This document shows positions 422 to 11,404 of a DNA stretch of 64,000 nt, one piece after another. The position numbers were made by a program, and so were the translations under genes. The stretch is from Minisyncoccota bacterium. Lineage in GTDB: Bacteria > Patescibacteriota > Minisyncoccia > Phycocordibacterales > PALSA-1337. Under the pieces are notes generated by a model. That model saw only the letters and a list, made by a program, of their open reading frames with translations. It made no database searches and was not told the origin of the DNA. Location: the NCBI GenBank assembly GCA_041663145.1, contig JBAZRG010000001.1, positions 74,467 to 138,466 on the forward strand, written 5' to 3'. Each line of letters starts with the position of its first letter. Within the stretch, counting starts at the first letter, position 1.

Positions 422-1251
422 TAGAATATGACAGCGACATTATGACTGAAACAAAAAAAATAAAAAAGGAGAAAATATTGGTTATAGCAGGTGATGGAGC
501 ATTCGGAGAAAAACTGACTGATCTCTTGAAAAAGGACGGATATCAGGAAGTGTTTTTGATGAAGAATGGTTCAGAAGGATTGAAACAAATTTATGATTTA
601 TTGCCACATCTTGTGATCATGGATGTAACTTTGCCTGGGATGAGTGGTTATGAGATCTTGGCTAAAAAGCTTGCTGAACCGTTATTGGCAAAGATTCCAG
701 TTTTTCTCTTGTCGACGCAAGGTTTACCGATCGATATTCGCAGTGTTCCAGCTGGAGCGGTAACCGAATATATCATGGCTTTGCACGCCGATCCTGTAGA
801 GATAGTTACGAAAGTTAATAGACATTTTTCATACGAGTCGGTAACGTCAGGCTCTCTCGAATCGGACGCCGCAGTCGAAAGGACAGGGAAGAAAAAGTTA
901 TTATGGGTCGAGGATGATAAGCTGATCGGCAATATTTTATCAAAGAAGCTAACTGCTTCAGGATTTGAACTTTTTCATGCACAAAATGGTGAAGGAGCTT
1001 TGGAAATATTAAAAACCGTTATGCCAAATGTGATTGTCGTTGACCTCATCTTGCCGGGTATGAGCGGTTTTGAGATTCTCCAAAAGATCAATGCTGATAT
1101 GAGTTTCCAAAAAATCCCGAAGATGGTTTTATCGAATTTGTCAAAGCCGTCAGACATAGAAAAAGCTCATGCTTTGGGTGCCACAAAGTTCTTGGTCAAA
1201 GCCGCTACGTCTCTGGATCAGATAGTGGCTGAAGTCAAAGCGATGTGTTAA
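418..1251 (+). CDS. Response regulator with two tandem receiver (REC) domains and no output domain
   Basis: Two CheY-like blocks are present: 'KILVIAGDG...LVIMDVTLPGMSGYEIL' and 'KLLWVEDD...VIVVDLILPGMSGFEIL'. Each has the phospho-acceptor Asp context. The start overlaps the uvrB stop (ATGA). Confidence 0.7.
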   Translation: MIEYDSDIMTETKKIKKEKILVIAGDGAFGEKLTDLLKKDGYQEVFLMKNGSEGLKQIYDLLPHLVIMDVTLPGMSGYEILAKKLAEPLLAKIPVFLLSTQGLPIDIRSVPAGAVTEYIMALHADPVEIVTKVNRHFSYESVTSGSLESDAAVERTGKKKLLWVEDDKLIGNILSKKLTASGFELFHAQNGEGALEILKTVMPNVIVVDLILPGMSGFEILQKINADMSFQKIPKMVLSNLSKPSDIEKAHALGATKFLVKAATSLDQIVAEVKAMC

Positions 1252-1309
1252 AGTTATTTTGCTCTAAAATAGCGTTATTGGAGTCATGTAACATATAGGT
1301 GGAATATAA

Positions 1310-1393
1310 GCGCAGGTGGCAGAGCGGTCAATTGCAATGGACTGTAAATCCATCGCCCTATGGGCTACGAAGGTTCAAATCCTTCCCTGCGCA
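1310..1393 (+). tRNA. tRNA-Tyr (GTA), type II with a long variable arm
   Basis: Hand-folded. Acceptor GCGCAGG/CCTGCGC. Anticodon stem ATGGA/TCCAT with loop CTGTAAA. Variable arm GCCC-TAT-GGGC. T-arm GAAGG-TTCAAAT-CCTTC. Confidence 0.8.
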
Positions 1394-1536
1394 CACGAAA
1401 AAACCGAGCTTTGCTCGGTTTTTGAGTGGGAGCAGAGCGACGCGACTGCTCGCGTCGCGAGGAAGGATTTGAAGAGTCTGAGCATGCGGCGCGAAGCGAA
1501 GCGAGCACAGCGCGAAGACTGTACCGAAGCTGTAAG

Positions 1537-1559
1537 CTTCAAATCCTTCCCTGCGCACT
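1537..1559 (+). repeat. Direct repeat duplicating the tRNA-Tyr 3' end (TTCAAATCCTTCCCTGCGCAC)
   Basis: A 21-22 bp identical copy of the tRNA-Tyr T-arm and acceptor 3' strand lies about 165 bp downstream of the gene. GC-rich hairpins lie between the two copies. Confidence 0.7.
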
Positions 1560-1699
1560 ACTTCGCAACTCGGCTAATCGCCGAGTTGCTTCGTAGTGGA
1601 GACCACACGAGAATATATTAGACAATCCATTTACATAAAAAAGACGCGGTTCTGATGTCCGCGTCGGTGTGTTTTTGTTGTCGTACAAAATCGTACGAA

Positions 1700-2080
1700 T
1701 TAGTTGCGATACATATCAATGTCGGCGAGTTCGTGTTCGAAATATGGATGAAGAAGTACTCCGTCTTTAGCATCGCACAACGACATCCATGAACCCACTT
1801 CTAAGTAGAGCAATTCTTGATAATATCGACGTTCTTCTTCCGTGATCGGACCCATAGGGTGATCGTCCCGCCACATTTTGATTTTGGCTCTGCTGTCTTG
1901 CCAATCGTACGTCAGTTCCTCGATTCTGGTCGATGGTTGTTTTTTACGAAGTATGAGTTTACTACGGATGGATGCGACAATGAACATGACGAGGCTAAAT
2001 ACAGAAAGCAAGATCAGTATCGTGAAAGAGAGTAAACAGCAATAAGTTATGAGGCTATTAACATCTGTCAACGTTTTCAT
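1700..2080 (-). CDS. Hypothetical small membrane protein (one N-terminal TM helix)
   Basis: ORF with a hydrophobic N-terminus. No recognisable family. Confidence 0.4.
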   Translation of the reverse strand: MKTLTDVNSLITYCCLLSFTILILLSVFSLVMFIVASIRSKLILRKKQPSTRIEELTYDWQDSRAKIKMWRDDHPMGPITEEERRYYQELLYLEVGSWMSLCDAKDGVLLHPYFEHELADIDMYRN

Positions 2081-2150: not shown

Positions 2151-3326
2151 TCAGTCGACAATAACTCTTTTCAATTCAGTCGGTATATGAACAACGATTT
2201 CATAAGGTATGGTTCCGCATAATTTGGCGATAGAATTGATCGAATTTTTGGCAGTTGGATCAGAACTGATAACTGTAACTGGTGTACCAATACTCACTTC
2301 ATTCATGTGTGATATGTCTATGGTTGTTATATTCATACTGACTCGGCCAATGATAGGGCAGGGAGTGTTCAGATCACCGACACCGATATATCCTTTATTG
2401 GAAAGTCGTCTATCGATACCTTCATAATAACCAGCGGGTATGTTTGCAATTCTCATATCTCGTGTTGCCTTGAATGTATTGTCGTATCCGACAGTTTCGT
2501 CACGTCTAAGTGTCTTTATGCCGGATATCAGAGTCTTCATCTCTAGTATGGGCTTGAGTGCCATTCCTCTCATATTTCCCAGACCATATAGACCCAATCC
2601 GAGTCTCGAACAATTGGCATCAAGATCGTGATCGATCCAATGTCCGTCCGTAGCAGATATATGGAAGTACTTTATATTTGAAAATTGAGATTTGAAATAT
2701 TCAACTGTTTTTTTCCATACATTGATTTGTGATTCGAGAGAAGTAGAATTTATATCACTGGTGTTGGAAAAATGAGACATTATTCCACAGAGTCTGATCA
2801 GGGGATTTTTGGATAATAGATCTACGGCGATACTTTCTTCTGCTGGCAATATTCCTTGTCGACGCATACCCGTATCGATTTTGAGATGAATTGAAATCAC
2901 CGAATCTGTATCTTCGATGCCACGGAGAGTTTCGACAGAACTAATTGTGAATATTATGTCGCGAAGTCTGTTTCCAAGAATTGTTTCGGGACGAGAATAA
3001 CCGATTATCAGGATTTTATCGCGTATACCAAATGATCGGAGAGCTACTGCTTCAAAAAATGAATCAACGACTATAAACGGTAGATTTTTCTCTCCTCTTA
3101 GTATATGAGCTACTTCGCGCAAACCGTGTCCATAAGCGTTACTTTTTAGTACTGGAGCAACATTATTTTGTGGTGCCAGTTTTCGGAATAGTGCGAGATT
3201 GTTCAATAGTCTGGAACGAGATATTTCGACGGTTATGAGTGGTTCATAGGGAAATCGACGTCGAGATAGCCATGTGAGGGGATTCATCATGCTTTTATTG
3301 TACTTTTTTGAGCATGTTGACGCCAC
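2151..3326 (-). CDS. alr: Alanine racemase (PLP-dependent)
   Basis: The PLP-lysine motif 'VAPVLKSNAYGHGL' is present. Length (391 aa) and overall pattern fit Alr. Confidence 0.8.
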   Translation of the reverse strand: MASTCSKKYNKSMMNPLTWLSRRRFPYEPLITVEISRSRLLNNLALFRKLAPQNNVAPVLKSNAYGHGLREVAHILRGEKNLPFIVVDSFFEAVALRSFGIRDKILIIGYSRPETILGNRLRDIIFTISSVETLRGIEDTDSVISIHLKIDTGMRRQGILPAEESIAVDLLSKNPLIRLCGIMSHFSNTSDINSTSLESQINVWKKTVEYFKSQFSNIKYFHISATDGHWIDHDLDANCSRLGLGLYGLGNMRGMALKPILEMKTLISGIKTLRRDETVGYDNTFKATRDMRIANIPAGYYEGIDRRLSNKGYIGVGDLNTPCPIIGRVSMNITTIDISHMNEVSIGTPVTVISSDPTAKNSINSIAKLCGTIPYEIVVHIPTELKRVIVD

Positions 3327-3786
3327 TTGACATATTATGTATATATGCTATAATAGCAAAGTACGAGGCTGTAGAGCCTCAATTTTGTTCCTTAAAACCA
3401 CATATGCTTGAGTAAAGCTTATTTCGCCTGTGGCGAGATTACATGTGTTTGAGGAAAACTGATAGGAAGAATATGAAAAATCGCAGGGTTACGTGGTATC
3501 ACTTTTGGGTCTTGTTGACAGTTGGCTTTCTGCTCATCATTGCGTCGAGACCATCGACGCCGATAATGACGCCGGAGCCGACGCCAGCTTCGCTTTCTCC
3601 CGAAGTGGGAGAAGTAAAGATGGTTGAGGAAGTTACAGTCCCTCAAGAAGGGATTGTGCCAACTTCGACAACGGAAACTCAAATTGTCAGCGTGATCTAT
3701 CACGCTGAACCGCAGATTCGGTGATTCAGTATTTGGTAAAATCAAACGCAGTAAAAACAAAAACAAACAAGAAAGGTAAAGGATAG

Positions 3787-11217: not shown

Positions 11218-11404
11218 TTAGAGAGTCTTTCTTGGTTTGCTAATCAGGTGAGCTGAGTTGTCAATCTGTGTGTATATTGACACATCCTATCAAAGCCGTC
11301 AATCTTTTGATTGACAAATATTCTGTGCTTGCACTGCGTAGCTCGCGATTAGCGAGCGAAGTAGTCCTCCTTCGCTCGTAGGACACGAGCTTCGGAGGGA
11401 CAAG

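Follow-up and report, generated by a model that had tools for sequence, protein, structure and literature searches.

The tRNA-Tyr locus

The window studied here is a stretch of 64,000 nucleotides from a Minisyncoccota bacterium (GenBank assembly GCA_041663145.1, contig JBAZRG010000001.1, positions 74,467 to 138,466 of the forward strand). Positions below count from its first letter unless another locus is named. It carries a tRNA-Tyr gene whose 3' end is repeated a short distance downstream. The DNA from the first copy to the end of the second holds a full-length copy of a structured module, and the second tRNA tail is a structural strand of this conserved module, not a scar. The module belongs to a family targeted to tRNA genes and to the gene of transfer-messenger RNA (tmRNA). 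We describe it as a family, not catalogued before, of structured tRNA-trailer modules that are ~150 nt long and occur in the Paceibacterota (Candidate Phyla Radiation, CPR); literature searches for an earlier description of such modules in CPR gave nothing relevant. The parts of the window copy are listed below.

1310-1393 (or 1394), plus strand: tRNA-Tyr (GTA), class II with a long variable arm (ARAGORN; Rfam tRNA model, 62.4 bits).
1374-1394, plus strand: direct repeat 1 (DR1), an exact 21-nt repeat made of the T-loop, the T-stem 3' strand, the acceptor 3' strand and A73 plus C.
1413-1562, plus strand: the whole module, matching positions 1-149 of our covariance model R1 (124.4 bits, E = 2e-29).
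1399-1423, plus strand: linker hairpin AAAAAACCGAGC-TTT-GCTCGGTTTTT, which holds CCGAGC-TTT-GCTCGG (inverted-repeat search, folding).
1424-1435, plus strand: degenerate anti-acceptor GAGTGGGAGCAG, antisense of the acceptor 3' strand (inverted-repeat search, family comparison).
1437-1458, plus strand: hairpin 1, GCGACGCGA-CTGC-TCGCGTCGC, with a 9-bp stem (inverted-repeat search, covariation).
1461-1474, plus strand: anti-T strand GGAAGGATTTGAAG, the 5' strand of helix P2 and antisense of the T-stem 3' strand and T-loop (match to the local tRNA).
1475-1520, plus strand: core arm (family alignment, covariation, RNAalifold), made of the next three items.
1475-1479 with 1516-1520, plus strand: P3, AGTCT with AGACT.
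1480-1481 with 1514-1515, plus strand: tandem G·A.
1482-1483 and 1486-1489 with 1508-1513, plus strand: P3a, with an invariant AT bulge at 1484-1485 and a GCGAAGC-type tip.
1521-1525, plus strand: junction GTAC(C) (alignment, covariation, RNAalifold).
1526-1540, plus strand: hairpin P4, GAAGC-TGTAA-GCTTC, with an invariant C-UGUAA-G loop (alignment, covariation, RNAalifold).
1538-1558, plus strand: direct repeat 2 (DR2), the second copy of the tRNA-Tyr 3' end (exact repeat), in which 1540-1550 is the 3' strand of P2.

The 21-nt sequence TTCAAATCCTTCCCTGCGCAC has exactly two exact matches in the 64 kb, at 1374-1394 and 1538-1558. No third match appears there when up to 3 mismatches are allowed, 100 shuffles gave 0 matches, and the chance expectation is 0. 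With one mismatch the repeat grows to 25 nt (starting at 1370 and 1534). The tRNA gene has no encoded CCA, its discriminator A1393 being followed by C1394, and DR1 is a piece of this functional tRNA. The original prediction, made from the letters of the window alone, was right about the duplicated tRNA-Tyr 3' end, the 143 bp between the copies (1395-1537) and the presence of three hairpins. Its GC-rich insert is real as well: G+C at 1400-1600 is 55-58% against 41% for the window overall. Folding of the same region against shuffles gives z = -7.4. Several of its measurements need correction. An optional leading G is not shared (G1373 stands against C1537), the distance from start to start is 164 nt and not 165, the second copy stops at 1558 and not at 1559 (the first does stop at 1394), and the stem of hairpin 1 has 9 bp where 8 were claimed. 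It also overlooked a third copy of the tRNA tail, which is inverted. This copy, CGCGAGGAAGGATTTGAAG at 1456-1474, is 89% complementary to DR1 and DR2 and pairs with 1537-1555.

The linker hairpin is terminator-like in both directions. Its imperfect stem reaches 1387-1409/1413-1435 (23-nt arms, 83% complementary), and therefore the acceptor 3' strand can pair with 1424-1435. The same type of linker is found at loci L001, L095 and L117, and the anti-acceptor that is degenerate here is perfect, GTGCGCA(G), at L130, L109 and L105.

R1 has exactly one match in the 64-kb window, at full length, and the window's other six tRNAs have no module by R1. The window sequence was in the R1 seed, though its score resembles those of independent copies (102-141 bits). 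The match is accompanied by both an antisense and a direct copy of the adjacent tRNA tail, which makes the window copy a member of the family. The original prediction had proposed looking for the 143-bp insert elsewhere; neither blastn nor the covariance model finds a second copy in the window. Rfam over 1250-1720 (E<=10) gives the tRNA only, and a second tRNA or pseudogene can be rejected, as ARAGORN and Rfam both detect 1310-1393 (or 1394) alone.

A family of modules behind tRNA and tmRNA genes

The metagenome scan used the pattern CTGAGYAT N20-50 GAAGNCTGTAC N5 CTGTAAG and returned 49 loci with 51 elements; 47 distinct elements were analysed. A same-strand tRNA found by ARAGORN lies upstream of 35 of the 47, and immediately so except for L014 and the second copy at L096, which sit behind other modules. 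Two have a tmRNA gene (ssrA) as host, namely L083 (5326-5868) and L089 (3180-3729), and L104 is a further case; at these loci the antisense and the repeat fit the tmRNA tail. The remaining elements are cut by contig ends or lie behind other modules. R1, the covariance model built from the family alignment, gave 59 and 6 matches among the fetched loci. The family has more than 60 copies in Paceibacterota DNA. The extra copies it found are at L002, L085, L092, L093, L094 (three in 1.6 kb), L115 and L129.

With these further copies included, the hosts cover at least 17 tRNA specificities plus tmRNA. They are Tyr, Leu (4 anticodons), Ala, Val (2), Ser (3), Arg (3), Gly (2), Pro, Asp, Cys, Trp, Glu, Met, Asn, Ile(TAT) and a tRNA with anticodon TTA. 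The terminal repeat is always a copy of the local tRNA that starts at about position 56 and ends with N73 plus C. Flanking repeats measure 8-30 nt and are specific to the host tRNA. The inner arm is a true complement, because non-palindromic T-loops pair correctly (ATTTGAA with TTCAAAT, ACTTGAA with TTCAAGT, ACTCGAA with TTCGAGT). L027 illustrates the rule. It has a homologous element behind tRNA-Leu(TAG), and both its terminal repeat and its antisense fit tRNA-Leu and not tRNA-Tyr. Among the tRNAs at loci collected independently of the element, about 6 of 29 carry the module. One copy, L126b, lies away from any tRNA.

The TTA host is at L128 (~1308-1381), on a metagenome contig, and ARAGORN labels it 'tRNA-Stop'. 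It may be a suppressor or recoding tRNA.

The shared fold

The order of parts on the tRNA strand is the same throughout the family: the tRNA with DR1, the linker hairpin, the anti-acceptor (in many copies), hairpin 1, the anti-T strand, P3, the tandem G·A, P3a with its invariant AU bulge, the junction GUAC, P4 and DR2. Hairpin 1 has 9 bp and a tetraloop family-wide, the anti-T strand ends in CGAAAAG, and the P3a tip varies in length. P2 is formed by the antisense and DR2, and it closes a three-way junction; its core is 91% paired. The linker is terminator-like in ~9 of 35 copies, while in the other ~26 it has no terminator, is short and often contains a GCGNAGC mini-hairpin. By eye, terminator-like hairpins follow DR2 in several loci.

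We drew this structure by hand on an alignment of 45 sequences and compared it with versions slid by 1-3 columns and with shuffles. In the true register 92% of 1569 cells are paired, against 31-42% in the slid versions, and there are 373 double-change cells against 111±11 in the shuffles. Compensatory changes occur at 26 of the 35 pairs. P3 and P3a are 99.4% paired with covariation, and P4 is 100% paired with covariation at 3 of its 4 pairs. Hairpin 1 is 93% paired, with compensatory changes at all 9 pairs over the 45 copies. RNAalifold recovers the same helices and the AU bulge from the alignment alone (21 of 29 pairs with compensatory changes), including 8 of the 9 pairs of hairpin 1. In hairpin 1, P3, P3a and P4 together there are 13 G·U against 3 A·C on the tRNA strand. 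This excess suggests that it is the tRNA-sense strand that folds. The junction nucleotides are invariant across the alignment. For CTGAG.AT, GAAG.CTGTAC and CTGTAAG this was dictated by the search pattern, but neither the helices nor the other junction bases were constrained in this way. In variants found by R1 the P4 loop still has GUA and the junction still has UAC, as GUAUAC with AUGUAAU or GUAC with CCGUAGG.

The P4 loop C-UGUAA-G (1521-1536 region; family columns 135-150) resembles an anticodon loop (U33-G34-U35, where GUA is the Tyr anticodon). It might also pair with the UAC of the neighbouring GUAC junction; all of these bases are invariant. Mini-hairpins of the GCGNAGC or GAGCGAAGCGAG type recur in linkers, at the P3a tip (1495-1507 in the window) and in the RtT repeats of Escherichia coli discussed below. 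As DNA the GCGNAGC heptamer is an unusually stable hairpin.

Empty sites, arrays and cargo

A double-receiver response regulator flanks tRNA-Tyr at 418-1251. Its protein shows 100% identity to one from a metagenome-assembled genome of Candidatus Paceibacterota, which identifies the window as CPR/Patescibacteria DNA. An alignment of homologs of the regulator was used to fetch 80 syntenic loci from GTDB species genomes, and tRNA-Tyr adjoins the regulator in 12 of them. Homologous module copies follow tRNA-Tyr in the relatives L001, L014 and L019. L001 keeps the layout of the window and its differences are compensatory, L014 has the layout after two small hairpin units, and L019 has a degenerate copy. 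The module is absent from L003, L004, L030, L032, L068 and L071. L030 is an empty site because its tRNA meets the window's post-DR2 sequence directly: TACTTCGC-hairpin-GCTTCGTAGT follows the tRNA at once and is the sequence found behind DR2 in the window. Empty and filled sites can be paired twice more. L003 is empty and L002 filled, and L131 (empty) shares the trailer AGAGTTAAAATAT with L112 (filled). Comparison with related tRNA-Tyr loci was the check proposed in the original prediction, and it shows that the duplicated 3' end marks an insertion, with the native trailer directly behind the tRNA in L030, L003 and L131. The closest relative found is L130, whose regulator is 74% identical. It has a homologous linker hairpin and a perfect anti-acceptor GTGCGCA (1150-1190) without core and without DR2. 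Given L130, the long hairpin to which the tRNA contributes its 3' strand may serve a separate function.

Copy number varies as well. L096 and L101 are nearly identical, except that the former has two tandem copies and the latter one, and the internal repeat of L096 is a hybrid of the tRNA copy and a decayed distal copy, as unequal crossing-over would yield. At L085 (oriented 2797-3355) tRNA-Leu(CAA) is followed by a row of at least four modules, every one of them ending in the tRNA tail. Their cores differ, and the distal modules are more decayed. R1 matches only the first and third of them (the third at 39.5 bits). The unmatched modules have other internal cores with the same logic of antisense, core and tail, so the class may be broader than the family that R1 models.

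Some copies carry a gene. At L002 a 1.4-kb segment containing a polyprenyl-synthetase gene in antisense stands behind tRNA-Tyr, and after it come the module core, DR2 and the trailer ACGAGAA...gyrB. At L003 the same trailer stands directly behind the tRNA, without the 1.4-kb segment and the module. At both L093 and L126 one antisense open reading frame (ORF) lies between two module copies that are ~0.9 kb apart; that of L093 encodes a nucleoside triphosphatase with, by eye, a SWIM-type cysteine/histidine pattern. In all three the module lies at the right end.

At L090, L120 and the second copy of L126, which are unrelated loci, CCTGATT(T/G)AG(C/T)A(A/C)AATC(ACCTAC) stands after the T-stem part of a truncated DR2. 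In L126 it amounts to 24 nt inserted between DR2 and the remainder of the tRNA-Asn tail. The shared sequence may be the end of another inserted element.

Search for an integrase or mobiliser

The original prediction read the repeats as the classic attL/attR attachment sites of an integrase. The module does have flanking direct repeats of a tRNA 3' segment and empty sites in relatives, as expected of an element that integrates into tRNA genes, but no integrase lies in or beside it. A phmmer search with an Xer-like query gave no match among the ORFs of the 64-kb window, where serine recombinases were not specifically searched. Clustering of the ORFs within 4 kb of the 47 copies revealed no recurring protein family beyond syntenic housekeeping genes, and no recurring recombinase, reverse transcriptase or transposase. 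A tyrosine-recombinase motif scan near the modules found Xer-like genes only, in two unrelated loci and lineages. On viral contigs the strict pattern gave 0 matches and two loose patterns gave 1 and 43, which is about the estimated chance rate, and none of these was confirmed by R1. The attL/attR interpretation is therefore not supported. Nor is the proposal of a deletion remnant, since the 143 bp are a full-length copy of a covarying structured module with more than 60 copies behind tRNA and tmRNA genes. A miniature non-autonomous element, also proposed, fits in being a small recurrent module without its own mobilising enzyme. A reading of the second tRNA copy as a passive scar is not supported, as it is the closing-helix strand paired to the antisense.

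Several known types of element were considered and rejected. The class of miniature inverted-repeat transposable elements does not fit because the inverted repeat is internal, as antisense of the target, and not terminal, and because the flanking repeat is 8-30 nt long and specific to the host tRNA. A target-site duplication of the palindromic T-loop TTCGAA would not give an inner arm that is a true complement for the non-palindromic TTCAAAT, TTCAAGT and TTCGAGT. An IS91-type GTTC target is excluded as the four bases before DR2 vary, and a retroviral-type primer-binding site as the complement of CCA is absent. A hammerhead reading of CUGA..GAA.. breaks down because NGA is absent, CUGA runs straight into a helix and G occupies the would-be H17/cleavage position. 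The small self-cleaving ribozymes in general (hammerhead, twister, pistol, hatchet and those like hepatitis delta virus) gave no Rfam match at E<=10.

Comparison with RtT and other known systems

The closest design that we know is RtT (RF00391) in the E. coli tyrT-tyrV locus, which served as a positive control and gave four units at 133-138 bits. These 178-bp units are reportedly co-transcribed with the tRNA and processed to a 171-nt rtT RNA. An RtT unit ends in the last 19 nt of tRNA-Tyr, AATCCTTCCCCCACCACCA, and has the antisense GGGGAAGGAT ~100 nt upstream. In the Rfam consensus structure GGGGAAGGAT and the tail copy form the closing helix. The CPR modules likewise lie 3' of a tRNA gene on the same strand (tRNA-Tyr in the window, as in E. 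coli), end with the last 19-21 nt of that tRNA and are closed by an internal antisense. Both have tandem units in variable number, which for RtT is 1-10 among E. coli genomes, and both hold the GAGCGAAGCGAG-type motif: it is GAGCG(A)AGCGAG in RtT and is found at the P3a tip and in many CPR linkers. There are also differences. The CPR core is a three-way junction with tandem G·A, AU bulge, GUAC and C-UGUAA-G loop. The E. coli places examined are all tyrT/tyrV, whereas the CPR module has at least 17 specificities plus tmRNA with the antisense retargeted each time. E. coli units include CCA, and CPR copies usually end at N73 plus C. The design is the same, yet the module is not a member of RF00391.

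Other systems share part of the design. Integrative elements of tRNA and tmRNA genes (those with tyrosine integrases, and CIME-like derivatives that lack an integrase) have direct repeats from T-loop to gene end flanking the insert, tRNA and tmRNA targets, tandem accretion and occasional cargo. The module differs in being only ~150 bp with no integrase found, and attachment (att) sites of this class have neither its covarying fold nor its internal antisense to the target. Integron attC and CTX-phage attP sites resemble it in their conserved structure with covarying stems, in that one strand could rebuild a duplex site, and in cassette-like arrays, some with a single promoter-proximal gene. They differ as the module has no R/L boxes and no IntI or attI, its target is a tRNA gene and its unpaired core bases are strongly conserved. 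The box C/D guide in archaeal pre-tRNA (for example the tRNA-Trp intron) offers a cis antisense to the tRNA beside a CUGA...GA tandem G·A, and the fifth base upstream of CUGA would face U54. A box C/D motif or k-turn was rejected, however. CUGA is present, but its partner GAAG is without the 3-nt k-turn bulge, a C box (RUGAUGA) is lacking, and DR2 already occupies the antisense in cis. In 12 family loci Rfam gives tRNA alone, apart from a single small nucleolar RNA match at E = 2.4. To our knowledge fibrillarin and Nop5 are not known from bacteria.

What the module may be

The account that we favour takes window 1395-1558 as one intact copy of an RtT-like tRNA-trailer RNA module that recombines through the repeated tRNA end, and we hold it with about even confidence. 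It is the most economical mechanism, and it is preferred because a terminator is missing from most linkers, the sense strand carries the structure, and the junction is conserved in the way of an RNA family. The module would most likely be transcribed on the tRNA strand within the tRNA 3' trailer, although in the window this would need read-through of the hairpin terminator. The enzymes that process tRNA ends would then most likely free it, and the freed module could persist as a compact small RNA or ribonucleoprotein with the conserved junction as its functional surface. At the DNA level the repeated tRNA tail would most likely act as a handle for gain, loss, duplication and stacking, by recombination of an unequal or a site-specific kind. 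Selection for the helix probably keeps antisense and tail matched, perhaps with a contribution from template switching between the arms, which is a known mechanism for quasi-palindromes.

A number of results speak against this account. RF00391 (gathering threshold 45 bits) has no match in window 1250-1720 (E<=10) and none in 12 family loci (E<=5), and R1 scores E. coli RtT at a non-significant 3 bits. On this analysis the link to RtT is architectural and homology is not demonstrated. The mode of action of RtT itself is still called unknown in a 2024 preprint. The antisense pairs through N73 and C74, and therefore the terminal helix is not a precise mimic of an acceptor stem. The acceptor part of DR2 is decayed in about one third of copies. 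In the window a good intrinsic-terminator-like hairpin (1399-1423) separates the tRNA from the module and no plus-strand promoter is predicted near the module, so from its sequence this copy may be poorly expressed. Two observations look more like a mobile element. There are the three copies with cargo genes, and there is the occurrence of one core subtype, up to 95% identical, in modules that follow different tRNAs and have unrelated guide strands and a hairpin 1 that differs.

The main rival is therefore a miniature non-autonomous cassette for the T-loops of tRNA and tmRNA genes, mobilised in trans. A single strand of DNA or RNA would fold, with the antisense on the tail copy, and would rebuild an att site or guide the cassette to one, in the manner of integron attC and CTX-phage attP or of an IS110 bridge RNA. 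The junction would be a scaffold for binding the recombinase and the linker terminator would restore termination of the tRNA. This explains the cargo, the arrays, the tmRNA targeting and the guide swapping better than an RtT-like RNA does. The direct repeats span T-loop to gene end, and the T-loop is said to be a classic sublocation of tRNA and tmRNA integration sites. Empty and filled sites come in pairs, tmRNA genes are targeted as well, distal copies in arrays are older and decayed, the module is at the right end of the cargo versions, and its distribution is patchy (the ~6 of 29 tRNAs above). One core subtype has different guide strands behind different tRNAs, and the GCGNAGC mini-hairpins that recur in the family are known from single-stranded DNA as extremely stable. 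Even so, we consider the cassette a real but minority possibility. The 47 copies have no recurrent recombinase, reverse transcriptase or transposase in the 4 kb around them, no tyrosine recombinase was found in the 64 kb, no copy on viral contigs is confirmed by R1 and no excised form was observed. The conserved unpaired junction bases are more typical of functional RNAs than of folded att sites, and retargeting would demand changing the guide and the carried tRNA tail alike. One can also imagine a programmable self-targeting element, which on our analysis is doubtful. It would be a ~130-nt RNA or single-stranded DNA with a split guide (anti-acceptor and anti-T, separated by hairpin 1) that specifies the T-loop-to-3'-end segment of a chosen tRNA or tmRNA, and its junction would recruit the insertion catalyst or be the catalyst. 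Such an element would be integrase-independent or mobilised in trans, with a logic like that of bridge RNAs, integron attC or the exon- and intron-binding sites (EBS/IBS) of group II introns. If it exists, E. coli RtT would be a domesticated or fossil relative. The RtT-like RNA and the mobile cassette are not mutually exclusive.

The module could instead act in cis within the tRNA 3' trailer, with no stable RNA released, and affect termination, 3' processing or folding of the upstream tRNA. Examples would be an RNase III-type duplex with the acceptor 3' strand, or masking of the duplicated tail. Rfam does type RtT as Cis-reg, and in many copies the acceptor 3' strand and the anti-acceptor are linked in a long hairpin, which is kept in L130 without core and DR2. 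However, most tRNAs manage without the module (6 of 7 in the window), a three-way-junction core is superfluous for a simple processing hairpin, and L126b is away from any tRNA, so we regard this as unlikely. A decayed prophage or genomic island at tRNA-Tyr, leaving attL and attR after an internal deletion, would account for the direct repeat of the tRNA 3' end and for foreign-looking G+C-rich DNA. It is very improbable and effectively refuted, as the 143 bp match the family model over its full length with covariation, the same architecture behind more than 20 host genes cannot come from independent deletions, and the tyrosine-recombinase scans found no integrase. There is hardly any room for a non-functional partial duplication of tRNA-Tyr (a pseudo-tRNA) or an odd second tRNA. 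Its appeal is that tRNA-like words recur, GCAGAGCG at 1319 and 1432 and GACTGTA at 1341 and 1517. The family data refute it: ARAGORN and Rfam find no second tRNA, and CTGTAC and CTGTAAG cannot be relics of a Tyr anticodon because they are invariant behind Leu, Arg, Ser and tmRNA genes too.

Since 1978 RtT has stood as a peculiarity of a single E. coli operon, and the same design is now seen in a very distant phylum. The CPR version is a large, strongly covarying family whose members have been retargeted to almost every tRNA as well as to tmRNA. A curiosity of a single locus thus becomes something that can be studied by comparison, with natural variants by the dozen, helices that are defined and bases that are invariant. 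The question it poses is whether this is an RNA of the tRNA-processing machinery or a mobile element addressed by tRNA tails. For annotation, duplicated tRNA ends in CPR genomes should not automatically be called prophage or island scars.

A smaller module and other observations

A smaller hairpin element, here called the H-module, follows DR2 and is in turn followed by a terminator-like hairpin.

1559-1606, plus strand: H-module TACTTCGC-(GCAACTCGG-CTAATCG-CCGAGTTGC)-TTCGTAGTG-GAGAC-CAC, recognised by its recurrence behind other tRNAs.
1637-1676, no strand assigned: bidirectional terminator-like hairpin (A-run, GACGCGG...CCGCGTC, T-run), from sequence and terminator prediction.

The hairpin GCAACTCGG-CTAATCG-CCGAGTTGC is at 1565-1589 and is extended by CACTAC/GTAGTG (1556-1561/1593-1598). 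The H-module motif stands directly behind tRNAs at L030, L014 (twice), L094, L080 and, in the window, at ~11325-11363 on the minus strand. Its consensus is (T/C)ACTTCGC-[covarying stem-loop]-GCTWCGNAGTG-N5-CAC. It begins after ...CAC, includes GTG(C), which is antisense of the tRNA end, and finishes with GCAC or CCAC. Judged by its sequence it may be related to the large module, as a minimal or deleted form. A native-type trailer, ACGAGAA, typical of empty tRNA-Tyr sites, restarts after it, and there is a short direct repeat, CACACGAAAA at 1392-1401 against CACACGAGAA at 1604-1613. The window's tRNA-Tyr locus is thus a two-module array, because the H-module follows the large module, starts after ...CAC and ends in ...CAC before ACGAGAA. 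Between tRNA-Leu(CAA) and its H-module, at 11364-11403 on the minus strand, lies another hairpin, TTGTCCCTCCGAAGCTCGT-GTCC-TACGAGCGAAGGAGGAC with GAAG/GAAG internal loops; R1 gives it no match.

Two ORFs run over the tRNA and the module, one of 101 aa (1316-1621, plus strand) and one of 66 aa (1358-1558, minus strand). They are almost certainly spurious because P3a varies in length across the family by non-multiples of 3. A small ORF (tpr) is annotated inside E. coli RtT in a similar way. The hairpin at 1637-1676 closes both the tRNA unit and the convergent gene for a 126-aa protein (1700-2080, minus strand). By translation the neighbours look housekeeping: the C-terminal end of uvrB upstream of the regulator, this 126-aa membrane-like protein and an alanine racemase-like protein.

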